A stretch of DNA of 64,000 nt from a virus (IMGVR_UViG_3300014204_006651:16416-80415); one strand, 5' to 3'. Counted from the first letter of the stretch, positions 951 to 49,100 are shown. Notes: generated by a model not told the origin, from the letters alone. Translations and numbers: made by a program.

Positions 951-1005
951 ATTAATATTTCATTATTAAGTTTGTATTTATGTGTATACTATAAAAATTC
1001 CAAGT

Positions 1006-2868
1006 ATGACATATAATGATTTTTTAAAATTTTTAAATGAATTTAATAAAATTAATACTTTTATTGGTAAGATTGATTATGCAAATAGAAATCTAAATAG
1101 GATTGCTTCAGGTACTGGAAGAATTGTATATGATATTGATGGTAATAAAGTATTTAAATTAGCTAAAAACACAAAAGGTATTTCACAAAATGATGCAGAA
1201 TCATCTGCTGCAGTATATAAAAGTTATGACGATATATTAACCGATGTTATTGAATATGCTGATGATGATTCTTGGTTAATAGCTGAAAAAGCAAAAAAAA
1301 TCACATCATTAAGATTTAAAGAATTAATTGGTTATGATATTAATCAGTTTTATGCTTATTTAGCAAATGATGATTTAGAAATAAATGGATATCCTAAACG
1401 ATATAAAATCGATCCTACTATTGAGGCACAAATGCATGATGATGAACAAATACAAAGATTTAGAAATTTTATAATTGATTATGATATTAATGTTGGTGAT
1501 TTTGGACGAATAAGTTCATATGGTGAAATTGTACGTGAAGGTATACCTACTTTAGTATTAACTGATTATGGATTAACTAAAGATAATTATAATACTCATT
1601 ATACTTCAACAAAAAATAAAAGTTATGTGTTACATGAATTATTTTTTGGTGATGGTAATGATGATATTCTTTCTGATATAGGGGGTAGTGAAGAAATTAG
1701 AATGGGAAATGCAACAATACCATTAAATTATGTTAGTGAAGACGGTAGTTCGAATTTTTCAACTGATAATACTTTAGGTCGAGATAATTTTCCAATATAT
1801 AATCAGATTGATACTTCACCATCAATCAATAATGATTCCGAGGCAAATAGTGAAATTGATGAAGATTTAGAATATAATCATGCCAGTGATGCAACAAAAG
1901 ATCAATATAGTATTACAGAACGTATAGTGTCAGCAATGCCGGGAAGTAGTAGTGTTGAAGTTAAAAAGAAATGTAGATTAGCAGGTAATGGTAATACAAG
2001 TACTGCATGTAATCAAGGAGATATAAAAAATTTAAATATTAAATCACTTAAAGAAACTGTTAATATTAATTTACCCAATGGTGAAATTGATGGGTTTCAA
2101 TCATTTGATATTATTAATAATAATCAAGTTATTGGTGAAATTGATATAATTAATCGTGATAATGGTTATATAATTCTTGATAAAATTTTTATTCATAAAA
2201 ATTATAGGGGTAAGGGTTATGCCAATGAAGTAATACAAATTTTATTTAAATATGCCGATAAATTTAATAAAATTATTACCTTAACCCCGGATAATATTTG
2301 GGGAGCAAATATGAATAAATTAAAAAGATGGTATCAATCTTTAGGTTTCACGATGAACAAAGGTAGAAATAAAGATTTTACAACAATGCAACTAATGTAT
2401 AGATTACCAAAAACATTAAATGAGGGATTTAATGGGAATTCTTTTGATAGTTGGTTTAGTGGTTCACAAGTAGTAGATAATGATGATAAACCTTTGGTTG
2501 TTTATCATGGCACAAATAAGAAATTTGATAGATTTAATTTAAAAAATGCAGCACAACCAATAATATGGTTTTCTTCGGATAAAAATAAAATAGAACGAGG
2601 TGAAGCAGGTGCTGCCGGAACAAGCAGAATTGTTCCAGCTTATTTATCAATAAAGAAAATGGCTGGCTGGAATGAATATGAAAAATATGGGTTGGGTCAA
2701 CTTTATGAAATGGGATATGATGGGGCAAAACTTGATGATGATTATTTTGTATTTAGTTCAAAACAAATAAAAATATTGAAAAATAAGAATAGTATTAATG
2801 TTACAAACTTAATGGATGAAATTAATAAAAATATAAATGAGGCAAGAAAATTAATGAATGTTAAATAA
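1006..2868 (+). CDS. multidomain enzyme with a protein-kinase-like N-domain, a central GNAT acetyltransferase and a C-terminal Tpt1/KptA-like ART-fold domain
   Basis: Kinase-like: GTGRIVYDIDGNKVFKLAK (Gly loop plus Lys) and IIDYDINVGDFGRIS (catalytic loop plus DFG). GNAT-like: IHKNYRGKGYANEV. Tpt1-like: VVYHGTNKKF ... IWFSSD, comparable to KptA LYHGT ... VHLSAD. The start is taken at the internal ATG because the track start at 982 overlaps the promoter motif. Confidence 0.5.
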   Translation: MTYNDFLKFLNEFNKINTFIGKIDYANRNLNRIASGTGRIVYDIDGNKVFKLAKNTKGISQNDAESSAAVYKSYDDILTDVIEYADDDSWLIAEKAKKITSLRFKELIGYDINQFYAYLANDDLEINGYPKRYKIDPTIEAQMHDDEQIQRFRNFIIDYDINVGDFGRISSYGEIVREGIPTLVLTDYGLTKDNYNTHYTSTKNKSYVLHELFFGDGNDDILSDIGGSEEIRMGNATIPLNYVSEDGSSNFSTDNTLGRDNFPIYNQIDTSPSINNDSEANSEIDEDLEYNHASDATKDQYSITERIVSAMPGSSSVEVKKKCRLAGNGNTSTACNQGDIKNLNIKSLKETVNINLPNGEIDGFQSFDIINNNQVIGEIDIINRDNGYIILDKIFIHKNYRGKGYANEVIQILFKYADKFNKIITLTPDNIWGANMNKLKRWYQSLGFTMNKGRNKDFTTMQLMYRLPKTLNEGFNGNSFDSWFSGSQVVDNDDKPLVVYHGTNKKFDRFNLKNAAQPIIWFSSDKNKIERGEAGAAGTSRIVPAYLSIKKMAGWNEYEKYGLGQLYEMGYDGAKLDDDYFVFSSKQIKILKNKNSINVTNLMDEINKNINEARKLMNVK

Positions 2869-2917
2869 TTAATGACCCTTTCCGTATCTTTTGTGGGTTT
2901 CCATACTATTTATTGTT

Positions 2918-3748
2918 ATGAGAAATAATTGGAGTGATATTGAAATTAATATACTTAAAATATATTATCCAAATACTAATGATATTAACATTGTTAAATA
3001 TTTTAATGGAAGAACGTTAACATCAATTAAAATTAAAGCAAAAAGATTGAAAATTTATCGTAATGATAAAATTAAAAAATGTAATCGTAGTAATGGTAGC
3101 GTTGGTATTAAAAATGGTATGTATGGAAAATCTTCTAAATTAAAAGGTAAAACATATGATGAATATTATGGTAATGAAAAATCCAAAATAATTAAAGATA
3201 AATTATCTAATAATAATATTGGTAAAATTGGTTCATTTGGTAGTAAAAATGGTATGTATAAAAAAATACCGTATAATAAAGGTATTTCACCAAGTAATGA
3301 AATTAAAAATAAAATAAAAAGTGGTATTAATAATTATTGGAATAATTTAAATAAATTTGAATTAAAAAAAAGAAAAGATAAATTAAGGGAAGATTGGATC
3401 ATAAAAAGAAAGAAATATTCTGAGATTGATACAATACCTGAAATAATAACTGAAAATATTTTATTAAAATTAAAAATTAAATATCAAAAAAAAATAAATA
3501 TTGGATATTATAATTGTGATTTTGTAGTCAATAATATTATTATTGAAGTACAAGGAGATTATTGGCATGGTAATCCAAAATTTTATAATTCATTTGATAA
3601 AATACAAGAAAAAAATATTAATAGAGATAAAAGAAAATTAAAATTCTTACAATCAAAGGGATATTTGACATTATATTTATGGGAAAATGATTTAAAACAT
3701 AATGTTGATTATTGTGAAAACCAACTAATAAAACATTTTTATGAGTAA
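2918..3748 (+). CDS. freestanding homing-endonuclease-like protein with a Vsr/DUF559-type PD-(D/E)XK C-domain and NUMOD-like repeats
   Basis: C-terminal NCDFVVNNIIIEVQGDYWHGN resembles the Vsr core FVDGCFWHG. Two KNGMYGK/KNGMYKK repeats resemble NUMOD3. The track start at 2891 is a TTG; the ATG at 2918 is preferred. Confidence 0.5.
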   Translation: MRNNWSDIEINILKIYYPNTNDINIVKYFNGRTLTSIKIKAKRLKIYRNDKIKKCNRSNGSVGIKNGMYGKSSKLKGKTYDEYYGNEKSKIIKDKLSNNNIGKIGSFGSKNGMYKKIPYNKGISPSNEIKNKIKSGINNYWNNLNKFELKKRKDKLREDWIIKRKKYSEIDTIPEIITENILLKLKIKYQKKINIGYYNCDFVVNNIIIEVQGDYWHGNPKFYNSFDKIQEKNINRDKRKLKFLQSKGYLTLYLWENDLKHNVDYCENQLIKHFYE

Positions 3749-5897
3749 AATAGAAAATTTTAGAAATGTGTTAATAAATAAACCATTTATTAAATCAATA
3801 ATTAATGATTTGAGAGGTGAATGTTATGCTGTAGGGGGGGTTGTTCGTGATTTAATACTAAATAAACCAAATAAAGATATTGATTTAGTTATTAGAAATG
3901 TTCCGATTGATAAACTAATTTTACAATTACAAAAATTTGGTAAGGTTGATGTCGTTGGTAAATCATTTGGTGTTATTAAATTTATTGATTCTGATGGTAT
4001 TGAATATGATTTAGCACTTCCAAGAACAGAAAAAAAAAATAATTTGGGGGGATATAGGGGATTTAATGTTCAAAGTGATCCAAATTTATCTGTTGATGAC
4101 GAACTTTTCAGAAGAGATGCAAAATTAAATGCTATGGCAATTAATTTAAATACTGGTAAATTTATTGATCCTTTGGGTGGATTAGAAGATATTGAAAAAA
4201 AACAAATATCTGCTGCAAATCCGGAAGCATTTAGTGATGATCCATTACGTATGTTAAGAATGGTTGGTTTTGCATCACGTTTTGGTTTTACAATTGAACC
4301 AAAAACAATGCAATTAATACAACAGAATGCTCAAAGAATAAAAGAAATTCCCCCGGAAAGGATTTTAACTGAATTTGAGAAAATAGTTAAAAAAGGAAAT
4401 AAAAGAGTTGGTGCACAATTACTTAAAAATACGGGATTATATAATCAAATTTTTGGTTCTGATTTAAAGCAATCTGTAATAGATAGGAGTCCATTTGAAG
4501 ATATTAAAACAATGGGTGAATTTATTTATTTATTAATACGGTTAAAATCAGACCCTGCAACATTTTATAAAAATAATTTAAAGGGTGATATTGACACATT
4601 TAAAGAAATTAAAGCAATTGATATTGCATATAATAGTAGTGAAAATTCCAATTCAATTAAAGCAAAAGCGGTTGCACACAATATGTATGCGTTATCTCCG
4701 CAATCACTTCAAAGTAAAATATTACCAAATATTATTGAAATTGCAGCACAGGAATTGCTTACTGGTAAATATCCTAAAATACTTGGTGATTTAGCAATAA
4801 ATGGTAATGATTTAACTGAAATAGGTTTTAAAAGTAAAGAAATTGGAAATATGCTTAAATCATTATTATTAAATATATATGCCGATAAAATTAAAAATAA
4901 TAAAGAAGAACTTTTAAATTTTGCTGAACAAAATAAATCAAGAAGTGGTGAAGTATTTGATGGAATAGCTGTTTATAGTGGTGTAATACTTGATGAAGAA
5001 TCAAGACAAAAATTAATTAAGGTTTTTAGTAGAATGATACCTAAAGATTGGGAAATAATTACACACCATATGACAATTAAAACTGGTAGACTTGATCCAG
5101 ATTCTAATGAAAAAAAGGATATTGAAAACAATAAAACAGTTGAATTAAGTGTTCTTGATTATGCAATGGATGATAAAGTAATGGCGGTTGGGGTTAAAGG
5201 TTATCCAAGTCAAAATACGAAACCACACATAACTTTGGGAGTTAATAGAAATGATGATGGTAAACCAGCAATGTCAAATAATTTAACTAATTGGAAACCA
5301 CTTGGTTTTCCATTAAAATTAACTGGAAAAGTTCGAGAAATTGAAGAAGAAATTAAAAATGTAAATGTTATTAACGAAAACGATAACATAAAAATTGAAT
5401 ATGGCTCATTAATGTTAAATTTAAATATTCCTAATTGGATTAGAATAACTTCAATTATTAATAAAAATGATATTTATAATGAAGAAGGTTTTGGAATTGA
5501 AAACGAACCACATTTAACAATTTTATATGGTTTTCATAATAATGTTACTGCGAATGATGTTTTTGATTTATATAAATCAGTAACTAAACTAAAACCAATT
5601 AAAATAATAACAACAGGTATTTCAAGTTTTGAAAATAATGAGTTTGATGTTGTAAAATTAGATGTTGAAGTTACTAATTTTTTAAAATTATTAAATAAAA
5701 ATATGAGGGAATTTCCAAACACTAATGAATTTAATGAATATAATCCACATGTTACAATTAGTTATGTAAAAAAGGGTTGTGGGAAAAAATATAATAAAGT
5801 ATTTAAAAATAAAATAAATTTAATTGGTGATGAATTAGTTTTTTCAACAAAAAAAAATAAACAAAAAAAAATAAAATTGAATAAAGAAAAGGAATAA
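3741..5897 (+). CDS. class II nucleotidyltransferase (CCA-adding enzyme/poly(A) polymerase head domain) fused to a C-terminal 2H phosphoesterase (LigT/CPDase-like)
   Basis: The head-domain motifs are all present: GGVVRD, DIDLV, FRRDAKLNAMA (RRD motif), IDPLGGLEDI and DPLRMLRMVGFASRFGF. The C-terminus has three H-x-T-x motifs (PHITLG, PHLTILYG, PHVTISY), typical of 2H phosphoesterases. The start overlaps the upstream stop (ATGAGTAA). Confidence 0.8.
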   Translation: MSKIENFRNVLINKPFIKSIINDLRGECYAVGGVVRDLILNKPNKDIDLVIRNVPIDKLILQLQKFGKVDVVGKSFGVIKFIDSDGIEYDLALPRTEKKNNLGGYRGFNVQSDPNLSVDDELFRRDAKLNAMAINLNTGKFIDPLGGLEDIEKKQISAANPEAFSDDPLRMLRMVGFASRFGFTIEPKTMQLIQQNAQRIKEIPPERILTEFEKIVKKGNKRVGAQLLKNTGLYNQIFGSDLKQSVIDRSPFEDIKTMGEFIYLLIRLKSDPATFYKNNLKGDIDTFKEIKAIDIAYNSSENSNSIKAKAVAHNMYALSPQSLQSKILPNIIEIAAQELLTGKYPKILGDLAINGNDLTEIGFKSKEIGNMLKSLLLNIYADKIKNNKEELLNFAEQNKSRSGEVFDGIAVYSGVILDEESRQKLIKVFSRMIPKDWEIITHHMTIKTGRLDPDSNEKKDIENNKTVELSVLDYAMDDKVMAVGVKGYPSQNTKPHITLGVNRNDDGKPAMSNNLTNWKPLGFPLKLTGKVREIEEEIKNVNVINENDNIKIEYGSLMLNLNIPNWIRITSIINKNDIYNEEGFGIENEPHLTILYGFHNNVTANDVFDLYKSVTKLKPIKIITTGISSFENNEFDVVKLDVEVTNFLKLLNKNMREFPNTNEFNEYNPHVTISYVKKGCGKKYNKVFKNKINLIGDELVFSTKKNKQKKIKLNKEKE

Positions 5898-5909
5898 AAA
5901 ATTATAATA

Positions 5910-6806
5910 ATGAGATTAGTTGCTTTCGACTTTGATAAAACATTAATTAATTCTCCTTTGGAAGATGAAGGTAAAGAAATATGGCTTGAAAAAACCGGAA
6001 ATTCATATCCATATAAAGGATGGTGGGGAAGACCTGAAAGTTTAGACATTAATGTTTTTAATATTAAACCATTTCCAAGCATATATAAACAATATAAAAA
6101 GGAAATTTCTACACCAGATACTTATGTAATCATTCTTACATCAAGAATAGAAAAATTACGACCACAAATTGAAGCAATTTTAAATAAAAATGATATACAT
6201 GTCAATGAAATTGATATGTTTAATGATAAATTAACAAAAGGTCAAAGAATTCTTGAATATCTTAAAAAATTTCCAGATTTAATTGAGATTAATGTATATG
6301 AAGATCGTCAAAGTGATATAGTTGCTTTAAAAAGTATTAGAAATCAAATTCCAGAAAATATTACATATAATATTTATTATGCAAGTAATGGTAATTTAGT
6401 ATTATTAGAATCAACTTCTAAAATAAATAATATTGTTAAAGAAGAAATTGAAAAATTTATAAATAACGATAATTATATATATCATGGTACACATATCGGT
6501 GCAGGTTTTCATATACAACGTGATGGTAAAATGAAATTATTTAATGAACCATATATTTCGTTTACCAGTGATCCAAATGTTGCAAAATATTATGCTAATA
6601 TGAAAGGCGGTTCTTCTGGAAGAAATATTATTTTAAGAACAAACTTAACTAAGGATTTTCAAGAATCTCCAAAATATGAAAAAAATAATGGACATGAATG
6701 GATAACTACAAAAGAAATACCTGTTGATGAATTGGAAATAAATAGTAAATATGGTTGGATTCCATTAAATAATTGGGATTTTATTGACAATAATATTAAA
6801 AAATAA
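5910..6806 (+). CDS. HAD-family phosphatase fused to a Tpt1/KptA-like (ART-fold) domain
   Basis: HAD motif I is FDFDKTL, motif II is ILTSR and motif IV is EDRQSD. The C-terminal YIYHGTH ... ISFTSDPNVAKYYANMKGG aligns with KptA LYHGT ... [18 protein letters not shown]. Confidence 0.55.
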   Translation: MRLVAFDFDKTLINSPLEDEGKEIWLEKTGNSYPYKGWWGRPESLDINVFNIKPFPSIYKQYKKEISTPDTYVIILTSRIEKLRPQIEAILNKNDIHVNEIDMFNDKLTKGQRILEYLKKFPDLIEINVYEDRQSDIVALKSIRNQIPENITYNIYYASNGNLVLLESTSKINNIVKEEIEKFINNDNYIYHGTHIGAGFHIQRDGKMKLFNEPYISFTSDPNVAKYYANMKGGSSGRNIILRTNLTKDFQESPKYEKNNGHEWITTKEIPVDELEINSKYGWIPLNNWDFIDNNIKK

Positions 6807-6835: not shown

Positions 6836-7666
6836 ATGATAGATATGAGATATAAACCACGTTTTTTGCCACAAGTTAGTGCACCATATACAATCATGTT
6901 GCAAAAACTTGATGATGATGGTGTGGATTATGATATCGTTGAAATTGATCCAAACGAATTAGAACCATTACAAGGAATTACTTTTTCGGATGAAGTTGAA
7001 AATGTAAATCTTAATGATATGAATCCAATTTGGATGTCAAACAATAATAAAGTTCTTGATGGTCATCATAGAATGGTTCGTGGATTACTTGATAATAAAA
7101 AATTAAAAGCAATTCGAATTAATTTAAACGAAAAAGATGCTGCCAGAGTTTTAAATAAAATCCATGATATTTATGAGTATGAACAAGCACATGGGATGGA
7201 AGAAACTACTAATGATGAAGTAATTAATGATGAAAATCAGGCAAGTGCGGGTGTAAGTCAAAGCGAATTTCTTGCTTCACTTGAAGAAGATAATATGACA
7301 ATTCAACAAGAAAAATCTGAAGGAAATGAAAAAACAATTATAGCCTATCGAAAAGAACCGATAAAGAAAAATTCAGTTGTTGGTAATTTTTTTACATTAA
7401 ATCCAATTGATGGTTTTACTAAATATCAAATAGATTTTGATAATTTATTAGATACAAATGAATTGGGTGTAACATATAAAGATGGTCAACAACCAGTAGA
7501 TATTTTAGCTAAAATATGGTTTCCACACATAAATTTTGAAAAAATAAGTAGTCAATATAATACCGATTCAAATAATATTAAAAGTAAAGCTATTGCTGAA
7601 AAAGCAATGAAACTTGGTTATGATGGTGTTAAATATGGCGATAAAATAATACAAGGATTAAAATAA
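6836..7666 (+). CDS. ParB/Srx-like nuclease domain protein
   Basis: N-terminal VLDGHHRMVRGL matches the ParBc DGHHR signature. The C-terminal LGYDGVKYGD motif is shared with the C-terminus of ORF 1006 (MGYDGAKLDDD). A promoter motif lies at 6814-6822. Confidence 0.5.
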   Translation: MIDMRYKPRFLPQVSAPYTIMLQKLDDDGVDYDIVEIDPNELEPLQGITFSDEVENVNLNDMNPIWMSNNNKVLDGHHRMVRGLLDNKKLKAIRINLNEKDAARVLNKIHDIYEYEQAHGMEETTNDEVINDENQASAGVSQSEFLASLEEDNMTIQQEKSEGNEKTIIAYRKEPIKKNSVVGNFFTLNPIDGFTKYQIDFDNLLDTNELGVTYKDGQQPVDILAKIWFPHINFEKISSQYNTDSNNIKSKAIAEKAMKLGYDGVKYGDKIIQGLK

Positions 7667-8169: not shown

Positions 8170-9156
8170 ATGGTAAATGAATTAGATATTATTGATGATT
8201 TTAAAAATGGATTTAACATTTCTGCATTGGAATCAAAATATGGTGGAAGAAGAAAAACATTACGTAAGATATTATTTAAAAATAATTTAATTGATTCGAT
8301 TGAACCAGTTAGAAAATGTTATTTTAATGGTGGCAATAAAGACGATATTAAAAATAAAGTATTAATAAAATATAAAAATGAAAAAAATCTAAAAATTTTA
8401 AGTGATGAATTTAAAATACCCATAATGTCAATATACAATTTTTTAAGAAAAGAGGATGTTTTTAATTCTGAATATGGAAAACAATTACATCATAATAAAG
8501 TAAGAAAATATTCATTAAATGAACAATATTTTGACAATATTGATTGTGAAGAAAAAGCATATTTTTGGGGAATTTTATATGCTGATGGCAATAATTCAAT
8601 AAAAAAAACTGAAATAAAATTAAATCTACAAGAAGATGATCATGAAATATTAATTAAATTAAATAATTTATTACAACCAACAAAACCAATCTTATATAAA
8701 CCAACAAATAGAATCAATTGCAAATCACAATATGCGTTAATTATTAATTCTAAGATTATATCATATAGATTAAATGAATTAGGTATCGTACCAAATAAAA
8801 CATTTAAAGTAGAATATCCTACATGGTTAAATAATGATTTAAATAGACATTTTATTAGAGGATATTTTGATGGTGATGGTTGCGTTACATTTAATAAAAT
8901 TAATAAACAATTATGTATTAGTTTTACTGGAACTGAAAATATGATGTTAGGTATACAAAGAATCTTGATGGATCAATTAGATTTTTATAAAACAAAATTA
9001 AGTAATAGATATCCAGAAAGAAATAACAACATTAGGTCATTAATGTATTTTGGTAATGGAAATTCCAGAAAATTTTATAATTATTTATATAATAATTCTA
9101 AAATATATATGGCAAGAAAGAAAAATAAATTTAATAAACATTTAAAATTAAATTAA
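8170..9156 (+). CDS. freestanding LAGLIDADG homing endonuclease
   Basis: Two LAGLIDADG-type motifs: AYFWGILYADGNN and IRGYFDGDGCVTF. It sits immediately upstream of the intein-containing gene. Confidence 0.7.
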   Translation: MVNELDIIDDFKNGFNISALESKYGGRRKTLRKILFKNNLIDSIEPVRKCYFNGGNKDDIKNKVLIKYKNEKNLKILSDEFKIPIMSIYNFLRKEDVFNSEYGKQLHHNKVRKYSLNEQYFDNIDCEEKAYFWGILYADGNNSIKKTEIKLNLQEDDHEILIKLNNLLQPTKPILYKPTNRINCKSQYALIINSKIISYRLNELGIVPNKTFKVEYPTWLNNDLNRHFIRGYFDGDGCVTFNKINKQLCISFTGTENMMLGIQRILMDQLDFYKTKLSNRYPERNNNIRSLMYFGNGNSRKFYNYLYNNSKIYMARKKNKFNKHLKLN

Positions 9157-9158
9157 AT

Positions 9159-11663
9159 ATGGATGGAAAAATAAAGATACTTTTTTATACGTTAGATTCT
9201 GCCGGGGTAGCGTATTTTCGTACACTTACTCCAGCAATGGAAATAGAAAGAAATCATAGTGATGAATTTTATGTTGAAATTAACCCACAAATTAATTTTA
9301 ATGATCCTAAATTTGTTGACTACTTAAAATCATTTCATATTATACATTATCATCGTCAATTTTTGAGTGATAGTAAACAAATGTTAAATTTAGCTAATGA
9401 GTTAAGAAAATCTGGAACAATTTTGATCTGTGATATTGATGATTATTGGCAATTACATAAAAAACATCCATTTTATAGTATGAGCCTCGAAAAAAAACTT
9501 TATATACCTATTTTGGAAAACTTAAAAATTGCTGATTATGTTACAACCACTACAGATTTATTTGCAAATGAAATTCGTAAAGTAACTGGTAGAGATAATG
9601 TTGGAGTATTTTATAATTCAGTTGATCCAACATGGATGAAACAATTTCAGAATAACTGGAAACCAGACCCGGATGGTAGAGTTAGGATAAGTTATATGGC
9701 AGGGTCGAGCCATATGGTTGATATTGAACAACTTGAAGGAGTTATGAATGTATTATCAAATGATACTTCATTAAGAGATAAATTTAAAGTAATTATAGCA
9801 GGTTGGGATACTGAAGGTAATACTACTGATATTACATTTAATCAGGAGTTTGGAACTGAACTCCAAAAAAGAGGTTTATGGGTATATGAAGTAGTTAAAG
9901 CAATTAATAATTCAAGAGGTGATGTGGATAAAATACCTAAATTACCCGCAGATTTAAAAGAAAAATATAGGGGAAAGATTTTTGATTCACAACAGAGAGA
10001 TATTAAATCAACTGAAAGTGTTTATTATTTATATGAAAATATTTTAACGGATAAACATAGAATGATAAATAATCCTGATTATTACCAATGGTTACATAAT
10101 TTTGAAAGAAATGTTGATTATCCCAATGAAGGAAATTTTGCACGTAGATGGACACAAAAAGCAAATACTTATGCACAAGTTTTAAATGAAACTGATATTG
10201 TACTTGCACCATTGGCTGATAATTCATTTAATAGAATGAAATGTGTTACTGAAGATACTTTAATATCAACCAATAAGGGGATATATAAAATTGGTGATAT
10301 TGTCAATAATTCTTGTAAGGACATTAAAATAATGCATGAAAATGTTATTAATTTATTTAAATATCCAAATGAAAGGGTAATTAAATTAACAACACATATT
10401 GGTGTTGAAATTGAGGGTACTGAGACACATAGAATAATGGTAGGGGGTGAGTGGAAAATGTTAAAAGATTTTGAAATTGGTGATCTTATTAATATTTCTC
10501 CTTTTGAAATTGAAACAAAAGAATACCAAAGAATTCATTATCCATTATTATTAAGTAAGAGGATAACTGAAACAACATTAAATAATTCAACTAAACTAAT
10601 GATGCCGTCAATTGAAATTAATGAGAATTACGGTAGATTTTTTGGATACATGGTTGGTGATGGTCATTTTTCAAAGGGTTATTTAAATATAAGTTGTGAT
10701 AAAAGACATATAAATGTGGTTCAAGATATTAAAGAACTTGTTGAAAGCATGGGATTAATGCCCATTATATATGAGAAAAAACCGGATAGTCGTTGTATAA
10801 ATTCATATATTAAAGAGGGTTTTGGTATTGAAGTTAGAATACCATCGAAGCATTTAGCAAATATATGTTATCAAGAGAATTTGAGAGATGAAAAGGGAAA
10901 GATTTTTGAAGTACCTCATTTTATATTAAAATCTCCAAAGTCTGTAATACGAGAATTTTTACGTGGATTATTCGAAGCAGACGGAACTGTTAATGCGGAA
11001 TCATCAAACATGAGTTTATGTACAAAAAGCTTTATTTTAGCCAAACAAGTACAATATTTATTACTTGGGTTTGGGATTGTATCAATCATAGACAAAGCAT
11101 TGAATAAGAAATATAAAAGATATTACTATTATGTTAAATTGAACCGTGATGCTTCGGATATTTTCTACAGTGAAATTGGGTTTATATCCGAAATTAAGTG
11201 TGAAAAATTAAAGAGAATTACCGAAAAATTACATAGTAATAGATTTATGAAACAAAGTTTTAATACTACCATTCTAAATGTTGAATATTCGGTAAAGGAT
11301 GTTTATGATGTTGAGGTTGAAAATATTCATCAATATAATGGTAATGGTATAATTAATCATAATTCAAATCTTAAGCAAGTTGAATGTTGGACAAGAAAAC
11401 TTCCTATTGTGTGTTCAGATATTCCACCTTATAATGTACATGGTAGGCATATGGAAAATTGTGTGTTAATCCCTGCTGTAAAAAATGCACATAAATATTG
11501 GCAAAAATATTTAAAAAGACTAATTTTAAATCCTGATTTAAGAAAACAAATTGGTGAACAACTTTATGAGGATTTTAAAGAAGACTATAATCTTGCAAAT
11601 GTTACTAAAAAACGTATAGAGTTTTATAAAGCAGCGGTTGCAAAAACATTGGCAGTAATTTAA
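9159..11663 (+). CDS. GT-B (GT4-like) glycosyltransferase precursor interrupted by an intein
   Basis: The N-extein ends ...LAPLADNSFNRMK and the C-extein begins SNLKQVECWTRKLPIVCSDIPPY. This is the GT4 E-x7-E region, a typical conserved-site location for intein insertion. Confidence 0.7.
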   Translation: MDGKIKILFYTLDSAGVAYFRTLTPAMEIERNHSDEFYVEINPQINFNDPKFVDYLKSFHIIHYHRQFLSDSKQMLNLANELRKSGTILICDIDDYWQLHKKHPFYSMSLEKKLYIPILENLKIADYVTTTTDLFANEIRKVTGRDNVGVFYNSVDPTWMKQFQNNWKPDPDGRVRISYMAGSSHMVDIEQLEGVMNVLSNDTSLRDKFKVIIAGWDTEGNTTDITFNQEFGTELQKRGLWVYEVVKAINNSRGDVDKIPKLPADLKEKYRGKIFDSQQRDIKSTESVYYLYENILTDKHRMINNPDYYQWLHNFERNVDYPNEGNFARRWTQKANTYAQVLNETDIVLAPLADNSFNRMKCVTEDTLISTNKGIYKIGDIVNNSCKDIKIMHENVINLFKYPNERVIKLTTHIGVEIEGTETHRIMVGGEWKMLKDFEIGDLINISPFEIETKEYQRIHYPLLLSKRITETTLNNSTKLMMPSIEINENYGRFFGYMVGDGHFSKGYLNISCDKRHINVVQDIKELVESMGLMPIIYEKKPDSRCINSYIKEGFGIEVRIPSKHLANICYQENLRDEKGKIFEVPHFILKSPKSVIREFLRGLFEADGTVNAESSNMSLCTKSFILAKQVQYLLLGFGIVSIIDKALNKKYKRYYYYVKLNRDASDIFYSEIGFISEIKCEKLKRITEKLHSNRFMKQSFNTTILNVEYSVKDVYDVEVENIHQYNGNGIINHNSNLKQVECWTRKLPIVCSDIPPYNVHGRHMENCVLIPAVKNAHKYWQKYLKRLILNPDLRKQIGEQLYEDFKEDYNLANVTKKRIEFYKAAVAKTLAVI
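10242..11363 (+). mobile_element. intein (374 aa) with a LAGLIDADG homing-endonuclease domain
   Basis: It begins with Cys (CVTEDTLIS) and ends with HN followed by a +1 Ser. The internal motifs FFGYMVGDGHF and EFLRGLFEADGTVNA are LAGLIDADG-like. The splice junctions restore a contiguous GT motif. Confidence 0.75.
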
Positions 11664-36138: not shown

Positions 36139-37497
36139 ATGAAACAAGGTATTTTAGAATATATTAATCTAAAAAAAGAAATTGCTAAAAGTAAAGAAGG
36201 TAGAGATTATATAAAATATATTGTAGTTTCTAATATTAAAAATGAAACGTATAACGTAAAAGATAAACTAAAAGCTCTTGGTTTTAATTGGGATAGAAGA
36301 AATTTTAATTGGTATATATTTGGAAATAAATTAACCCATGATATTCTCGATGGGTTAAAACAAATCAATAATGAGTTGAAAACTGATGGTGGACAAACCG
36401 AAAATATAGATGAATTTATTTATTCATTAGAATCATTTAGAGAACAAATTAATACTTCATCAGCTACTCCAGAAGTTAAAGTTAATTTAACATCACTTCT
36501 TGATCAATATATTGAAGATATAGCAAATGCTACTGATTCAAGAGCAGCAGATGCTGAAATACAAAAATATATTGAATTTTCACATAAATTTCATAATTAT
36601 AGTTTTTTAAATTCAATATTAATTTATATTCAAGATAATAATGCAACAAAAGTTGCTGGTCGAAAAAAATGGGAAAGTTTAGGTAGACAAGTTATTAATT
36701 TAGATAAAAGAATTGTAATTAATTGTTTTAATGAATATTATGTTGATCCTAAAACTGGAAAAAGAATGTCGTATTCATTAGATCAAAAAAAATCAGATAG
36801 AGATTATGTTGCAAAAGTAAAGGGAGGTACTGAACCATTTGATAAGAAAAAAATGGATGATATTGAATCAAGAACTAAAATCATAAAAACTGGTTTTAGT
36901 GATTGTAGTGTTTATGATGTTGCCAATACAACAGGAGAAGCATTACCAGAAGAACCTACATGGAAAGGCACGTCTGATGATAGTGCAGATTCAATTGCAT
37001 TATTTAATATTGCTAAAAAAAGTTTAGAAAATTCGGGTATAAAAGTAACTCAAGACCCATCAAAACAAGGTGAAGGAGGTTTGAGTGGAATTGGTTATAT
37101 AAATATTAGTGCTGGTGAAAAAGGTAGTGGTGCTGCTTCGATAATTTTTCATGAATGGGGACATGAATTACTTCATCATCCTAATAGTAAGTTTCATAGT
37201 AGGTCATTAGAATATTTTGAAAAAAAAGGTGAATTAACATATACACAAATTAAACAAATAAAAGAAGTACAGGCAGAAACAATCTCTGCGGTATTATGTA
37301 AACATTATGCAATACCTACGAATCAACATCCTACATATATGGCTTTATGGCAAGGACAAGGTGGACTTAAAAGTAAAGAATTGATTAAAGAAAATATTGA
37401 AACTATTAGAGAAGTAAGTAATTTTATAATTAAACAAATTGAACTTAATAAAATAGAATTTGATAAGGCTAAAGAACTGGTACAACAACAAAAATAA
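36139..37497 (+). CDS. ArdC-like antirestriction protein (ssDNA-binding N-domain plus HExxH zincin) with an extra N-terminal extension
   Basis: FHNYSFLNSILIYIQDNNATKVAGRKKWESLGRQV matches the ArdC-N/DUF1738 consensus (YS.N ... AT.V.G...W..LGR.V). The C-terminal IIFHEWGHELLHH is an HExxH metalloprotease motif. A promoter motif lies at 36114. Confidence 0.6.
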   Translation: MKQGILEYINLKKEIAKSKEGRDYIKYIVVSNIKNETYNVKDKLKALGFNWDRRNFNWYIFGNKLTHDILDGLKQINNELKTDGGQTENIDEFIYSLESFREQINTSSATPEVKVNLTSLLDQYIEDIANATDSRAADAEIQKYIEFSHKFHNYSFLNSILIYIQDNNATKVAGRKKWESLGRQVINLDKRIVINCFNEYYVDPKTGKRMSYSLDQKKSDRDYVAKVKGGTEPFDKKKMDDIESRTKIIKTGFSDCSVYDVANTTGEALPEEPTWKGTSDDSADSIALFNIAKKSLENSGIKVTQDPSKQGEGGLSGIGYINISAGEKGSGAASIIFHEWGHELLHHPNSKFHSRSLEYFEKKGELTYTQIKQIKEVQAETISAVLCKHYAIPTNQHPTYMALWQGQGGLKSKELIKENIETIREVSNFIIKQIELNKIEFDKAKELVQQQK

Positions 37498-37930: not shown

Positions 37931-38225
37931 ATTTTAATTAATCGCATATATCATTATATGTATGATAATTCTAATGTTTATTTAATGCGTAAAAGAAAAA
38001 TTTTCCTTTCAATTTTGGAAAATAAAGATTATTTTTACGATATTAATAAATATAGAGTTCAAAAAAAACATAATATTGAATATAAAAACACATATTATAA
38101 TCAATCATAATTATCTAAAACATTAAGTAATGAGATTGGAATAAAAGAAACAACAATAAGAAGAATGTTGCAAAGAGGATATTCAATATCAAAAATAATT
38201 GAAAAACAAAAAATTATTTAAATTA

Positions 38226-41200
38226 ATGAGTATTAAAAAGATATGTCATTTGGGAGATATACATATTCGCAAAACACCCACACGAAATTCAGAATATGAG
38301 TTTGTTTTTAAAAATTTAATTAAATCACTTACTGAAAAAAAACCAGATAGAATAGTAATTGTTGGTGATTTAGTGCATGATTACCTTGATTTACAAGGTG
38401 AACAATTAATTATGGCAAATAGATTACTTAATGATTTAAGTAAAATTGCCCCTGTAAGAGTTACAAGAGGAAATCATGATTGCCGTAAAAAAAATTTAAA
38501 AAGAGTTGATTCAATAAAAGCAATTGTTGAAACACTAAATAATCCTGAAGTTATTTATTATGATAAAACAGGATTTTATGAAGATAAAAATATTAATTGG
38601 GCAGTTTGGCATCATGGTGAAATAAAAAATAATCCTTGGAAAAATAAAGAAGGTAAACATATTCTGGAAAATCCGAATCATTTTTTAAATATTGATTTAT
38701 TTCACGATCCAATCAATGGTTGTAAAGCAGTGAACGGTTTTGATATGAAAAGTAAATCATATTATAAACTTTCAGATTTTAAGGGAGATTTATCATTTTT
38801 TGGGGATATTCATAGAATGCAATTTTTAGATGAAACACATACAAAAGCATATTGTGGTTCATTAATCGCACAGGATATTGGAGAAGGTGATGATAATTTT
38901 CATGGATATTTATTATGGGACGTAGAAACTAAAACTTCTGAATTAATATCAGTTAAAAATTATCATTCATATAATAATATTAAAATTTCACCATTTACGG
39001 ACTTTGACGATTTGGATTTTGAAATTCCTAACCCAACACGGGAAATGCATGTTAGATTCATTTGGAACACTCTTCCACAAACGAGAACTAAAGAAAATGA
39101 AAGAAAATTAATAAGTTATATAAAATCTAAATATTCTAATTTAATTATTTTACATAAAAATAACTTTATTGAAAGTGAAAATATTGAAATAAATGAAAAC
39201 GTAACACTTCAAAATATTTCAAGTAAAACTGTTCAGCATGAAATTTTTACGGAATTTTTAGAAAAAATAGGAACAGATGCTAATATTATTAATGATGTAA
39301 TTACTTTGGATGAAGAAATCCTCAATGAAATTAATATTGATGAAGATGTTAGTATTGAATGGAATATTATTAAATTCGGTGGTATTAATTTTGCGTCTTA
39401 TGGTCAATTGGATATTGATTGGCGAGATATGGACGGGTTATTTCAAATTACAGGTATTAATACTGCAGGAAAAACAACAATATTAAAATTAATAACATAT
39501 ATTCTTTTTAATAAATCATTAGAAACTGAATCTCGATTAAAATATGGTGATAAACGATTTGTTAATGATAGGAATGGTGCTACATATTGTGAAACATATC
39601 TTGTTTTAGAAGCTAATGGTGAATATTTTGGTATTAAAAGAAGAACTGATATTATAAGAAATAAAGAAGGTGAAATTACTGGTGCACCAACAAAATTAAA
39701 CCATTATATACTTTCTAATCCTGATGAAGAAATGAATGAAAATACTTCATTAGAAAAACTGGATGCAGATAAAAGGATTATTACACAAAATAAACTCGAA
39801 TCAATTATTGGTGCATATGATGATTTTATGCGTATTGTGATGACAACATCTGATACTCTTAATAAAATATTGTCTAATGATATGGCAATTTTTATTGATT
39901 CTTTATTGTCTGATAGTGGTTTAGATATTTTTGATAAAAAATTAGAAGGTTGGAAAATTATAAATAAAAGAATTAATGAAAAATCACGCATTTCTTGTAA
40001 TATTGAAATTAAAGAAATGGAAATTGCTACTTTTACTGAAGAAATTAATTTATTTGAAAGTAATATATATGATATTGAAATAATAAAATTACCAACTATT
40101 CAAAATAAAATTTCTACGGGACGTACATATGTCGAAACATTAACTAAGAAATTATTTAAAATAGACCCCGAAATTTACGATTTAAACGTAGATACGGTTA
40201 GAAAGGATATAAGAGTTCATCAAATGAACATAAATGATTACAATGCACGTAAAATAATATTAAATGATATTATTATTCAACTTAAAGAATCTTATAATGA
40301 AAAACAACTAATTAAACTAATTGAAAAAAAAGAAGCTCACAAAACCATCGAATATAATAAAAAATTTGAAATTAAAACTATTGAGCAAATTATTCGAGAT
40401 GAAGAACATGCTATTGAAATAATTAATGGGGAAATTTTTAGATTAAAACAGGATGGGACAAAATTAAAAACTGAAAGACAAAATTTAAAAAATAGTAAAA
40501 TTTGTAGTCAATGTGGACAAATTATTGATAAAAAAGAACATCAAGATCATATTGCTAATAATATTAAAATAAAAGAAATTGAAATGTTTTCAATTGCTGA
40601 AAAAATTAATGAAAAAGAAAAAATTGATAAACAAAATCATTTAAATAAAATCGAAATTAAAAAGGGTGAAATAATTCCAATTCAAAAAAGTATTGAAAAT
40701 TCGGCACTTGAAATGGAAAATGTATTAAGAGAAATAGGTGAACTTCTGAACGATAAAAATGATGTTGATAAACGTAAAGAATTATCAACAGAATTAAATC
40801 AAATACCAATATTGATTCAAAATGAAGAATTGAAAATTAATATACTTCAACAAAAAATAAATAATTACGAAAATAGTTTAAAGCAAATAGAAGAAAATCA
40901 TAATACTGAAAAAGTTATTACTGCTGCAAAACAAAAATTATTAGTGCTTGAATCTGAAGAATTTAATGAAAAGGAAAATATTTTCATTATGAAAACCAGT
41001 GTTGCTGAAAAACAAAAAAAGATTAAAGAAAATGATCAATTAATTATCGATTTTAAAGCACAAGAATATAGAGATTCAGTTATGAATTTATATAAAATGT
41101 GTGTTCACCGGGATGGCATTCCAAGACAAATGTTAAGTAATTATATTATCCCAAAAATTAATCTAACACTTGAAAATATATTATCAGTTGCACCATTTAA

Positions 41201-41555
41201 AGTATGGCTTGATCAAGATGATTTACGACCTAAATTAGTCTATAATAATAGACCAACCTCAATTATTGATTGTATTGGTGGAAGTGGTAAAGAAAGAACA
41301 TTTTCCAGTGTGGTGTTAAAATTTGCATTAAATCAAATTAATGTGAAAGCCAAGCCAACAATATTTTTACTTGATGAGGTGATGGGTAAATTGGATTTGG
41401 AAGGAAGTGTTGAGGAATTTATTGAAATATTACAACTAATTAAATTAAATATGAAAAAGGTATTAATCATTGAACAAGTTCATAATATAGAACCAGACTA
41501 TTTAATTACTGCACAATTGGATGAAAATGGTATATCATCAATTACTATTGAATAA
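38226..41555 (+). CDS. single-chain Mre11(SbcD)-Rad50(SbcC) fusion nuclease/ATPase
   Basis: N-terminal metallophosphatase motifs HLGDIHI, VGDLVHD and TRGNHDC. Then the Walker A P-loop GINTAGKTTILKL, a long coiled coil containing a CSQCGQ zinc hook (CxxC), a signature-like GGSGKER and Walker B/D-loop IFLLDEVMGKLD. The ATG at 38226 is preferred over the TTG at 38199. Confidence 0.75.
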   Translation: MSIKKICHLGDIHIRKTPTRNSEYEFVFKNLIKSLTEKKPDRIVIVGDLVHDYLDLQGEQLIMANRLLNDLSKIAPVRVTRGNHDCRKKNLKRVDSIKAIVETLNNPEVIYYDKTGFYEDKNINWAVWHHGEIKNNPWKNKEGKHILENPNHFLNIDLFHDPINGCKAVNGFDMKSKSYYKLSDFKGDLSFFGDIHRMQFLDETHTKAYCGSLIAQDIGEGDDNFHGYLLWDVETKTSELISVKNYHSYNNIKISPFTDFDDLDFEIPNPTREMHVRFIWNTLPQTRTKENERKLISYIKSKYSNLIILHKNNFIESENIEINENVTLQNISSKTVQHEIFTEFLEKIGTDANIINDVITLDEEILNEINIDEDVSIEWNIIKFGGINFASYGQLDIDWRDMDGLFQITGINTAGKTTILKLITYILFNKSLETESRLKYGDKRFVNDRNGATYCETYLVLEANGEYFGIKRRTDIIRNKEGEITGAPTKLNHYILSNPDEEMNENTSLEKLDADKRIITQNKLESIIGAYDDFMRIVMTTSDTLNKILSNDMAIFIDSLLSDSGLDIFDKKLEGWKIINKRINEKSRISCNIEIKEMEIATFTEEINLFESNIYDIEIIKLPTIQNKISTGRTYVETLTKKLFKIDPEIYDLNVDTVRKDIRVHQMNINDYNARKIILNDIIIQLKESYNEKQLIKLIEKKEAHKTIEYNKKFEIKTIEQIIRDEEHAIEIINGEIFRLKQDGTKLKTERQNLKNSKICSQCGQIIDKKEHQDHIANNIKIKEIEMFSIAEKINEKEKIDKQNHLNKIEIKKGEIIPIQKSIENSALEMENVLREIGELLNDKNDVDKRKELSTELNQIPILIQNEELKINILQQKINNYENSLKQIEENHNTEKVITAAKQKLLVLESEEFNEKENIFIMKTSVAEKQKKIKENDQLIIDFKAQEYRDSVMNLYKMCVHRDGIPRQMLSNYIIPKINLTLENILSVAPFKVWLDQDDLRPKLVYNNRPTSIIDCIGGSGKERTFSSVVLKFALNQINVKAKPTIFLLDEVMGKLDLEGSVEEFIEILQLIKLNMKKVLIIEQVHNIEPDYLITAQLDENGISSITIE

Positions 41556-45953: not shown

Positions 45954-46160
45954 ATGGATAATAGTGATATTAAGAAAATAGTCAAAGATGAAATTACGAA
46001 TTTTGTTAGAAATTCTTTGGATATTGAATTAAAAAAAATTCTTAGTAATCTAAATAGTAAATCAAGACATGAATTAGCAGATGCAATGAAAAGAGCAATG
46101 GAAAGTGTTGTTAAAACACTGTGGATCAAGAGAGATTTTTGGAAGACAGATATAAAATAA
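45954..46160 (+). CDS. small hypothetical protein
   Basis: 68 aa. The promoter motif at 45929 supports the + strand ORF over the overlapping - strand ORF. Confidence 0.4.
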   Translation: MDNSDIKKIVKDEITNFVRNSLDIELKKILSNLNSKSRHELADAMKRAMESVVKTLWIKRDFWKTDIK

Positions 46161-49100
46161 TGAACGAAGATATTAAATTTAAGTCAACACTTAAAGAACC
46201 AGTAAGTGATCAGTCAAAGAAATTTGAAAAAGATTTTAAAAAAACTATGACACAATATAACCCAACAACGAAATTGAATGAAACTGATACTTTATTAAGT
46301 GAAGTAGAGCAATCATTAAAGAAAAAGATTTTTAGTTTGGGTAAAATGGAATCATTAGTTTTTGCTGATCCTAAATTAACTGCGGTTTATAATCAAATGG
46401 CTGAAAATGGTGAAGAAAAATATGGATATCATTATAATGAAACTATTCAAAATATGATATTTAATGATTATGTATTAAATAGTCCGAAATATTTACAAAA
46501 ATATAAAATGGCTATACCGAAAGAAAAGAAAAGAAGAGATAAAAGCGGTATTAATCAATTAAAAAAAGCAGGAGAAATAACTATGGCAAAAACAAATCCA
46601 ACTCCTAAACCAATTGTTACTGAAAATGATGAATTACCTACTAAAGTAATGTTTTTGGTTAACGATAGAGATCAAAAAAATGCAGATGTTTTTGCATATT
46701 TTCCAGAAGAAAATTATGATAATGCTGGTAAATATAAAACTGCTTATTCACATATTGGTCAACACTCTTCTGCAAGTCCAGAATATGCTGCAGAAAGTAG
46801 ACCAGCATCACCAGAAGAATACGCTGATCTTAAAGCTGAACTTGAAAGTATTGGTTATAATCTTGATGTAGTTAATGGTATTGAAGAAACTACAGGTGCT
46901 GGAAGTGCTGGTGCATTTGCTCCTGCAATGGGAATACAAAAAAGATCATTTGCAGAAGAAGAAATTGAAGAATCCACATCAGCAAGTAGTGCTGGTGGTG
47001 CTGCTGGATATGTTGGTTATGCAGGTCCTGCTGCTTGGGGTAGTGGTGATTTATTAAAAAAAGGTGAAACAAGTCCAACATTAAAAAAACCAATATGGAA
47101 AGGTGGAACAGTTATACAAGAAAGTAATTATTTAATTGATCCATCTGGATTTGAAAAATATATTCATTTATTAAATGAAGTTGATATATCCTATCAAACA
47201 AAATTGGAAAAAAAATCCCCAAATAGACAAGAAAAAGATAATACTATTATTAATAAAACTTCTGCATTTACAAGTGATGTGGTAAAAAATTGGAACGATG
47301 ATGATACTAATCTTGAAATGAATCAATTAAAAACTGGTAATCCGGATAAACCAAATTTTAATACAATGGAAGAAGAAAAGAATCTTAATGAAAAATCTAA
47401 ATCGAAAACACAACAACGTTTTATGGGTATGGTTCATGCAGTACAAAAAGGTAAATTAAGTCCTGATAAAGTTGGTAATAGTGTTGAAAAAGCTGCTGTA
47501 AATATGAGTGATAAAGATGCTGAAGATTTTGCAAGCACTAAACATAAAGGATTACCTGAAAAAATTGATGAAAATTTAGATGCAAAATATTCTCCTGATG
47601 AAAATTATAAATTTGTTGTTGAATCAAAATATATTATTGGTTTTCAAGGAAGGGAAGATATTTTATATTTTAAAACTGAAAGCGTTGCATTAAAATTTGT
47701 TAATGAAAAACCTAAAACACGAAAATATTTAGGTATTTATAATATTAAAGATGATACATTAACTATGATACAAAATAATGGTAATCCAGACAAATCAAAT
47801 TTAAGAACAATGGATGAAATTTTAAGTGTACATGATACTGTAGAATATATATCAGATAGAAATGGTGAAAATCCTTTTGAATTACAGGGTTCAAAATGGC
47901 AATTTGTAAATGCTAAATATCCCGATGGTAAGATAGATATTGGAGTATACAAGTTTGGTCAGGATTTGGTGTTTGATTATACAAGATGGCGAGAAGAAAT
48001 GGGATTAGATAAAAATAACAATATTAAAGAAGATACACAAACTATGATACAAAATAATGGAACTTCGATGTCAAACAAAGCACAACCAACTGGTGAACAA
48101 CCAAGTGGTATGGGTATGGGCATGCAAACAAGTGGTGGATTACAAGAATCCGATCAAATATCAAATCCTGTTAAATGGGTTCAAGCACAAAAAGATGCTG
48201 AAGGAATGAATGAACACTACAAAAAATTATTAAAAGAAATAAATAGTGAGTTGGAAGCATTTTCAATTCATCAAAATAAATTAATGAAAATGAGTGAAGA
48301 TAGAAAACCATCGTCATTGGTACTTAAAGATCGACTTGGTGATGATAATAAGAAAAATTTTAAATCAGATTTACAACAAAGCGGTACTAAAGAAGTAATT
48401 GATGTTGAAAAAGAATTACAATATAATGACCAACAAACCGATGTAGGTGATAATCCACAAAAATTGGGTCAAGATATTGAAAATAAACTTTTATTAAACA
48501 CAAAAGGTGATGCATTATTAAATGTAGGTGATTCTGATAATGATAAGGGTGATGAAATACCAAAACGTAATTTCACTACTGAAGAACAACATGAAGTTGA
48601 TATGATGCGTCAGGGTCAACAAGATTTGATTTTTGATAATAAACCAAGTAAAAGGTTTGAAGATCGTATGAAAGCTGATATGGGTGATGCAATGTATAAA
48701 ATCAGACAAGAAAAAATGAAATACAAAGCAAAAGCACCAATGTATAATAAAGAAGAACAACCTATAGCTGATACTGCAGTTAATAAAGTACAATTTGATA
48801 AAGAAAAATCTGGCTGGAATGAAAGAGAAGGTTTAGCTGAAACTATGATCACTGGTAGATTTATTGATTTATTGGGTAAAAAATATGTGAAGGATTTTAG
48901 GTTAAATGAAGCTAAAGAACTAAAAACTTCAACTGGAACTGCTAATCAAACAGGATTATTTGAATTAGATTTTACTGGATTTGGTAATAAATATAAAGGT
49001 AAAACAGAAAATAAAAAAGTTCTTATTAATGAAGGTATTGAAGCAGTATTATCCGAAAATAAATTTTATACTGATGGTATTAATGTTTTTGTTTTAAAGA

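Follow-up and report, generated by a model that had tools for sequence, protein, structure and literature searches.

Two ADP-ribosyltransferase-fold domains in a conserved gene block of a huge-phage genome

The window analysed here, a stretch of 64,000 nucleotides (64 kb) of viral DNA (IMGVR_UViG_3300014204_006651:16416-80415) with a G+C content of 22–29%, carries two genes, ORF A and ORF D, whose products each end in a domain assigned to the ADP-ribosyltransferase (ART) fold, and these two domains are the subject of this work. They lie in a run of five co-directional open reading frames (ORFs), all on the + strand: ORF A (GTG 982 or ATG 1006 to 2868; 628 amino acids (AA) from the GTG, 620 as called from the ATG), ORF B (2891–3748; a DUF559/Vsr-like endonuclease), ORF C (3741–5897; a PolyA_pol-head CCA-adding nucleotidyltransferase and two 2H phosphoesterase domains), ORF D (5910–6806; a HAD_SAK_1-type HAD, then the ART-fold domain) and ORF E (6836–7666; a ParB-like N-terminus). 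Searches of deposited phages, at the DNA and protein levels, yielded weak matches only, to uncultured huge phages of 460–640 kb and with only the HAD part of ORF D, and metagenomic contigs, the longest of 327 kb, encode an identical copy of the ORF D protein. Because of these huge-phage relatives, and because other genes of the window encode a baseplate gp25-like protein, a sigma factor, cell-wall amidases and intein/homing-endonuclease insertions, the window is a piece of a huge-phage genome.

An earlier, sequence-only reading had singled out positions 2452–6806, which run from residue 491 of ORF A, directly ahead of its ART domain, to the stop codon of ORF D. The peptide strings that it quoted are all found at the places given in the translations of the two genes: VVYHGTNKKF (residues 506–515, nucleotides 2497–2526) and IWFSSD (residues 528–533, nucleotides 2563–2580) in ORF A, YIYHGTH (residues 189–195, nucleotides 6474–6494) and ISFTSDPNVAKYYANMKGG (residues 216–234, nucleotides 6555–6611) in ORF D. 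Across all six reading frames of the window, the pattern [YFVIL][YF]HG[TS] is seen at these two sites and nowhere else; this uniqueness, together with the PF18760 match of ORF A described below and the ART folds of both domains, takes the YHGT pair beyond chance. The similarity in spacing that had been remarked upon is also borne out, as 22 residues separate the His from strand 2 in ORF A, 25 do so in ORF D, and 26 in Runella Tpt1 (His99 to Ser125). Structure models of both regions give ART folds, as had been proposed, with the split beta-sheet core of the superfamily, and we hold the assignment of both domains to fold and family with high confidence.

The ART-PolyVal domain of ORF A (2419–2781, + strand; residues ~480–600) matches PF18760 (ART-PolyVal; Pfam) over residues 499–561 with 45 bits, against a gathering cut-off of 31.2 (E 2.3e-11), and its predicted structure is PARP-like. 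The C-terminal 149 residues of ORF A used as a query retrieved 14 proteins, 13 of which carry PF18760, mostly as stand-alone proteins of 120–160 AA, and PF18760 is present on 13/13 significant full-domain homologs. The His of (V/Y)HGT, W-F-[ST]-S, G-A-A-G, AGW.EYEK, G-Y-D-G and Q-[IL]-K are invariant in the alignment of this family. The predicted key residues, H509 (YHGT), W529-F530-S531 (strand 2), D580 (GYDG) and Q595, are invariant or nearly so, their placement on strands coming from the secondary structure of the model and from alignments, without superposition. ART-PolyVal, known from the polyvalent proteins of phages and conjugative elements, is reported to be the most frequent protein-modifying domain in those of phages, to have an H-Y-D active site and to belong to the Tox-ART-HYD2 clade (Iyer et al. 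2017, PMC5512222). Compared with H-Y-D, ORF A has the His (H509) and the Asp (D580, GYDG), with Trp-Phe instead of Tyr in strand 2. Its likeness to ART-PolyVal comprises a score above the cut-off, the strand-1 His, a strand-2 aromatic, the GYDG Asp and a GNAT neighbour.

This neighbour, a GNAT acetyltransferase domain (2116–2352, + strand; residues ~379–457; PF13508 E 1.6e-8, PF00583 E 1.3e-5; Pfam), lies directly upstream of ART-PolyVal. GNAT is a typical neighbour of ARTs in polyvalent proteins, and kinases are also part of the theme (PMC5512222). Residues 307–358 of ORF A share 69% identity with part of a 2370-AA protein of the L001 contig, which runs on into CCA-adding and 2H domains; this identity indicates that ORF A is a single part of a variable gene of the polyvalent type. 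ORF A and the giant L001 protein also have in common a conserved stretch rich in Cys, KKKCRL.G.GNTS.ACNQGD (residues ~325–345). The N-terminus of ORF A (window 982–1800) contains kinase-like motifs, GTGRIVY..KVFKLAK (Gly-rich loop and Lys), DINVGDFG and LTDYG, and matches PHROG 4301 (function unknown). Its identification as a kinase was not retained, as it has no match in Pfam, Kinase-PolyVal included, or in the PDB, and only a weak 50-residue BLAST match to P0189, a metagenomic protein discussed below. Of the fusion partners named by the sequence-only reading, the GNAT and the HAD are present, whereas the kinase-like domain comes down to suggestive motifs with no significant family match. The ORF A half of the observation is a known family in a known context, an ordinary ART-PolyVal plus GNAT module.

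The C-terminal ART-fold domain of ORF D (6465–6803, + strand; residues ~186–298) has a core of ~112 residues that resembles the C-lobe of Tpt1, with H192 (YHGT), S217-F218-T219 (strand 2), R243, E263, E276 and W283 as predicted key residues. The C-terminal sequence itself has no significant match in Pfam, NCBIfam or PHROG; PF18760 does not match the window sequence and reaches at best E 0.012 among 18 homologs, some of which show weak ART-PolyVal and Arr matches. Conservation was counted in a close set of 25 sequences and in a broad set of 27 (alignment A5), the latter mostly solo members with down to ~21% identity to the window domain. Position 192 is His in 24/25 of the close set and 24/27 of the broad set, the three others having Tyr. 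Position 217 is Ser throughout the close set (25/25) and Ser or Tyr in most of the broad set (10/27 and 9/27 respectively). Position 263 is Glu in 25/25 of the close set and acidic in 22/27 of the broad set (14 Glu, 8 Asp), five members being non-acidic. E276 is near-invariant, and R243 (strand 3) and W283 are invariant in the family. Within the subfamily of the window, H192, S217/T219, E263 and E276 are thus kept in 24–25 of 25 sequences. Judged from these alignments, the family appears to have an H-[S/Y]-[E/D] configuration, as is usual in transferases with a catalytic acid, and E263, at the place of the catalytic Glu of H-Y-E and R-S-E ARTs, is the probable catalytic residue according to the alignment and the order of the strands, taken without superposition. 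In contrast with ART-PolyVal, the ORF D domain has Glu instead of Asp, lacks GYDG and has H, S and E as its predicted active-site residues.

A profile made from alignment A5 finds the C. thermocellum Tpt1 in the PDB (6E3A; E 9.4e-5, chain residues 90–166), followed by further Tpt1 entries with E values of up to 9e-3 (9LD3/9LD4, 8TFI and the Runella 7KW8 sequences); behind these come cholix toxin, exotoxin A and PARP15 at E>0.01, which leaves the Tpt1 NAD+ (nicotinamide adenine dinucleotide) lobes as the only significant solved relatives. The C. thermocellum stretch LYHGTARRF...QYVHLSADVETALQVGKRRD aligns with the profile of the ORF D family. This broader profile was needed for Tpt1 to appear, as the narrow A2 profile gave only artefacts in the PDB (designed beta-propeller repeats, each repeat individually insignificant). 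The NCBIfam model NF002013 (RNA 2'-phosphotransferase) aligns with ORF D residues 186–275 at E 0.03 and with a solo homolog, P0128, at E 3.3e-4, over profile positions 94–178 of 183, and PHROG 5470, of the same annotation, is matched by 10/27 family members (best E 2.9e-7) over profile positions 93–149 of 183 only. The matches of A5, NF002013 and PHROG 5470 all fall in the C-lobe, and the Tpt1 resemblance noticed by the sequence-only reading is therefore real for ORF D and confined to the NAD+ lobe. Compared with Tpt1/KptA (C. thermocellum 6E3A, Runella 7KW9, 9LD3), the ORF D family is homologous over this lobe (HGT ... VHLS core), but it has Ser/Tyr at the second His of Tpt1, the acidic E263 aligned to the Asn/Val nicotinamide strand of Tpt1, a second near-invariant Glu (E276), and the invariant R243 and W283.

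The Arg-His-Arg-Arg tetrad of Runella Tpt1 consists of R16, H17 and R64, in an N-terminal RNA lobe (residues 5–78), and R119 in the C-lobe, while its HGT His is H99, which is separate from the tetrad and contacts the NAD+ ribose (PMC8464070). Neither ORF has the N-terminal RNA lobe, as HAD in ORF D and GNAT in ORF A are found upstream of the ART core; three of the four tetrad residues belong to this missing lobe, and the C-lobe Arg position of Tpt1 aligns with E213, at a variable position, in the ORF D family and with a Gln region, not Arg, in ORF A. The earlier opinion that neither protein keeps the full tetrad, and that both are divergent ARTs and not canonical Tpt1, is in agreement with these results; its identification of the visible His as that of the tetrad is not, because the tetrad His resides in the lobe absent from both ORFs, and the His of HGT belongs to the ART core, where it contacts NAD+. 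That both domains would be canonical RNA 2'-phosphotransferases (Tpt1/KptA orthologs) is suggested by their YHGT and strand-2 motifs at Tpt1-like spacing, and by Tpt1 being the top PDB match of the ORF D family; it is contradicted by the replacement of the RNA lobe, by tetrad positions that are every one absent or not conserved, and by the NF002013 score, which is 13.9 bits for ORF D against an equivalog cut-off of 231 bits, with no match for ORF A (NCBIfam). We regard this proposal as refuted by the domain architecture and almost certainly wrong.

A hidden Markov model search with the ORF D domain over 1.84 billion representatives returned 152 clusters at E<=1e-3 and 56 at E<=1e-10, and the clusters of the family (~150 at 50% identity) are all metagenomic. 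Solo proteins account for ~40 of the matches listed, and ~30 exceed 1000 AA, the largest having 4553 AA; the stand-alone proteins have 118–139 AA. In nine large carriers that were scanned, the ORF D-type region has no Pfam match of its own, and large carriers also hold ART-PolyVal, Kinase-PolyVal, PARP, LPD23, LPD38 and SLT domains, which are hallmarks of polyvalent proteins. ORF D-type domains thus share giant proteins with ART-PolyVal, and in P0161 and P0021 they are fused to a ParB-like domain similar to that of ORF E; occurrence beside GNAT, kinase or ParB modules or in polyvalent proteins, as known for ART-PolyVal, was found for both ORF A and ORF D-type domains. The metagenomic protein P0189 (735 AA) contains an ART-PolyVal, an ORF D-type ART and an ORF A-type ART-PolyVal, three ART-like domains in all, and would be a compact 'Rosetta stone' joining the ORF A and ORF D modules; its C-terminal segment is weakly and locally similar to the N-terminus of ORF A (pairwise E 0.001). 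When the two ART families are compared directly by hhalign, a probability of 40–50% is obtained, with His paired to His, ISFTS to IWFSS, and E276 to the invariant Gln. Among viral structures, mycobacteriophage 'ParB-like nuclease domain' proteins match best, followed by a phage DarT, a putative phage Tpt1 and many proteins of Bacillus phage G, a phage that encodes at least 10 ARTs (PMC9503650). The solo ORF D-type ARTs P0128 and P0136 show no linkage to HAD, 2H or CCA-adding genes in the neighbourhoods checked. In L007, a solo ORF D-type ART directly follows the gene for a ~460-AA protein.

The N-terminal part of ORF D is a HAD_SAK_1-type HAD phosphatase domain (5910–6440, + strand; residues 1–~177). 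Its PF10307 score, 23.7 bits, is just below the cut-off of 25.6 (E 4.6e-5), and dozens of close homologs are annotated PF10307; a profile of this HAD gave nothing significant in the PDB. The HAD motif residues D7, D9, T77/S78, K110 and D132 are invariant among homologs. There are ~190 HAD homologs, and ~40 clusters share the same C-terminal ART domain; among the matches listed, ~80 of 120 are HAD-only proteins of ~185–190 AA, and a few have other C-terminal partners. HAD_SAK_1 (PF10307) is the 'Swiss Army Knife' (SAK) RNA-repair HAD, which in jumbo phages 'tends to occur as a standalone domain' (PMC7824862). The ORF D HAD resembles it in the motifs kept and in the adjoining 2H and CCA-adding genes, and differs from this stand-alone habit by the C-terminal ART, present in ORF D and in ~40 related clusters. 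The sequence-only reading considered both fusion contexts novel: the GNAT/ART/kinase theme has been described (PMC5512222) and the HAD is of a described RNA-repair type, but the HAD_SAK-ART fusion appears to be undescribed in the literature examined. Two metagenomic HAD_SAK homologs of 319 AA, P0089 and P0099, end instead in an HG[AT]-type domain (IIYHGAD...GLSTS...ENEIRIL) that is likely, by motif only, to be ART-PolyVal-like, another ART variant; these two proteins suggest that ART modules were repeatedly swapped behind the same HAD.

The genes around ORF D form a conserved block, found in the same order in five independent contigs: a large polyvalent-type protein (sometimes with ART-PolyVal), the CCA-adding/2H enzyme, HAD with or without ART, a homolog of ORF E, a protein of ~110 AA, a protein of ~460 AA (interrupted by an intein in the window) and gp25. 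The CCA-adding/2H enzyme is either fused to the large polyvalent-type protein or encoded by a separate gene. Since the block is complete in contigs devoid of the ART, the CCA/2H/HAD linkage is kept with or without it. Small ORFs between the CCA-adding and HAD genes were considered as solo ARTs and rejected, as that of L011 is a stand-alone 2H domain and those of L010 and L003 have no ART motifs. ORF C matches PF01743 (E 1.5e-20), PF12627, PF08302 (tRNA_lig_CPD, E 9.9e-6) and PF13563 (E 1.4e-7) in Pfam and the CCA tRNA nucleotidyltransferase model of NCBIfam (E 3e-44), and a motif search located its HxT pairs at residues 442–446/495–499 and 590–595/669–674 (+ strand). One of its 2H domains resembles the fungal tRNA-ligase CPD, the other LigT/Acb1; in relatives, the ORF C modules are found inside proteins of 1548–2370 AA or split into separate genes. 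In the RNA-repair scheme described for jumbo phages, 2H enzymes open cyclic phosphates, HAD phosphatases including SAK remove linear phosphates and the CCA-adding enzyme rebuilds tRNA 3' ends, with KptA in a few phages (PMC7824862), and the conserved CCA/2H/HAD block fits this scheme. To judge from its gene content, the block would combine tRNA 3'-end repair with effector functions. A NUDIX protein of 266 AA is encoded outside the window (L005, 2293–3093), ~3 kb upstream of ORF A, between a DNA polymerase B gene and the ORF A block, and could process ADP-ribose derivatives produced by the ARTs.

We lean, by a modest balance of probability, towards a model in which both domains are NAD+-utilising ARTs belonging to the polyvalent, probably virion-delivered, effector repertoire of a huge phage, effector function included. 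Fold, family relationships, residue conservation, domain architectures and synteny support this model, and ARTs are encoded by more than 40% of jumbo phages (PMC9503650). Catalytic competence of both ARTs is part of this best-supported reading, in which activity, acceptor, timing and delivery are inferred. In the proposed mechanism, H192-G-T194 and S217/T219 of ORF D would hold NAD+, E263 would promote loss of nicotinamide and attack by the acceptor, and the ADP-ribose would be passed, in the early phase of infection, to a macromolecule of the host, in the manner of T4 Alt. Whether the effector acts by ADP-ribosylation of a host macromolecule is in our view evenly balanced. The analogy is not one of clade, as Alt is an R-S-E-clade ART, in contrast with the strand-1 His of ORF A and ORF D. 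Another system compared is the ART-containing ejection protein of cyanophage A4 (PDB 9K3A chain B). Several points weigh against the effector model: we infer virion packaging solely from the literature on polyvalent proteins and from the adjacency of baseplate genes; the sequence link between the two ART families is weak (the hhalign probability given above); the choice of E263 over E276 as catalytic residue relies on a weak Tpt1 alignment and on strand order; and the tight, conserved linkage of HAD with CCA-adding/2H genes fits a role of ORF D in RNA repair at least equally well.

This last point is the starting point of the main rival explanation, in which the ORF D ART is a Tpt1/KptA-like enzyme of tRNA-end repair, and which we consider unlikely. 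The 2H domains of ORF C would act first, opening the 2',3'-cyclic phosphates that host RNases leave behind, the ART would move ADP-ribose from NAD+ onto the RNA phosphate, to remove or cap it, the fused HAD would hydrolyse the leftover phosphate or the ADP-ribose-phosphate product, and the CCA-adding domain would rebuild the tRNA 3' end. The Tpt1 NAD+ lobes are indeed the nearest solved relatives, both by sequence and by fold, the ART is fused to an RNA-repair HAD whose gene is always beside CCA-adding and 2H genes, and one of the 2H domains has a match to the CPD of fungal tRNA ligase, a domain that produces a 2'-phosphate; moreover KptA, 2H and HAD have been described jointly in jumbo-phage RNA repair (PMC7824862), and the NUDIX gene lies nearby. 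However, the RNA lobe of Tpt1 is missing, with 0/4 tetrad residues conserved, and the catalytic position has a conserved Glu/Asp where Tpt1 has Asn/Val. About two-thirds of the HAD homologs listed (~80/120) have no ART, the block is complete without one, and the ART also occurs solo in unrelated neighbourhoods and in polyvalent proteins devoid of RNA-repair domains. Finally, the window contains no tRNA gene, and no RNA ligase among the ORFs scanned. A more specific version, which we find doubtful and put forward as a speculation, is that ORF D-type proteins are unrecognised 'Tpt1 C-lobe only' ARTs which, together with the HAD and the CCA-adding/2H/2H enzyme, carry out NAD+-dependent healing or capping of damaged tRNA ends; if true, they would give phages a new, NAD+-dependent branch of counter-defence, directed at host nucleases that target tRNA or at toxins that modify tRNA ends.

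Some proteins in the ART superfamily are NADases or NAD+ phosphorylases (PMC9503650), and one or both domains could accordingly be NADases or non-catalytic binders of NAD+ or ADP-ribose, altering or sensing NAD+-derived signals. The five members of the broad ORF D family that lack an acid at position 263, and the three with Tyr for His, would be compatible with such a function, but in the subfamily of the window H192, S217, E263 and E276 are conserved nearly without exception, the H, D (GYDG) and Q of the ORF A family are invariant, and NAD+ depletion would harm a phage that needs NAD+. We therefore deem this explanation distinctly improbable.

Phage ART diversity as such is well known, and so is the ORF A family. 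What is new is the C-terminal family of ORF D, which, as far as profile comparisons tell, is a distinct ART family absent from the Pfam, NCBIfam and PHROG models, and, as far as the literature examined goes, its fusion to HAD_SAK. ARTs are central weapons of phage–host conflict, and huge phages hold many fast-evolving ones. The ORF D family bridges the NAD+ lobe of Tpt1 and the Glu-bearing transferases, and its recurrent partners are an RNA-repair phosphatase or polyvalent proteins. An RNA end as its acceptor would mean a new NAD+-dependent chemistry of RNA repair; a host protein in that role would make it one more injected effector. The ORF D ART domain is small (112 residues), well folded and easily expressed, and is thus suited to direct assay.

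Two neighbouring genes bear on the evolution of the block. ORF B is free-standing (PF04480 E 2.4e-4; phrog_13076, 'endonuclease') and is probably a homing endonuclease, as judged by these matches. It is located between ORF A and ORF C, in a place where a single giant gene runs without a break in related contigs, and its site looks like a homing-endonuclease insertion tied to gene fission. ORF E has a ParB-like N-terminus (DGHHR; phrog_2859 E 1.5e-7) and is a conserved downstream neighbour (alignment A6). Its C-terminal half, IIAYRK..GNFFT..GYDGVKYGD, is conserved and echoes the GYDG strand of ART-PolyVal, with Arg replacing the His; hhalign comparison with ART-PolyVal gave a probability of 9–14% over a 15-residue GYDG stretch only, and Pfam gave nothing. 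This C-terminus may be a highly divergent third ART, or it may be something different.

Further along the window, a LAGLIDADG-type homing endonuclease gene (8170–9156, + strand) is followed by an 834-AA ORF (9159–11663, + strand) with a LAGLIDADG-bearing intein, whose relatives are uninterrupted proteins of ~460 AA. Two other regions are candidate polyvalent-type modules, one at 36139–37497 (+ strand), with a weak ArdC-N match (E 2.9e-4), and one at 46121–49246 (+ strand; 1041 AA), with a DUF3008 match. An ORF of 1118 AA (38199–41555, + strand) contains both a calcineurin-like (Mre11/SbcD-type) phosphoesterase and an AAA_23 (Rad50/SbcC-type) ATPase, and its product looks like a fused SbcCD-like protein.

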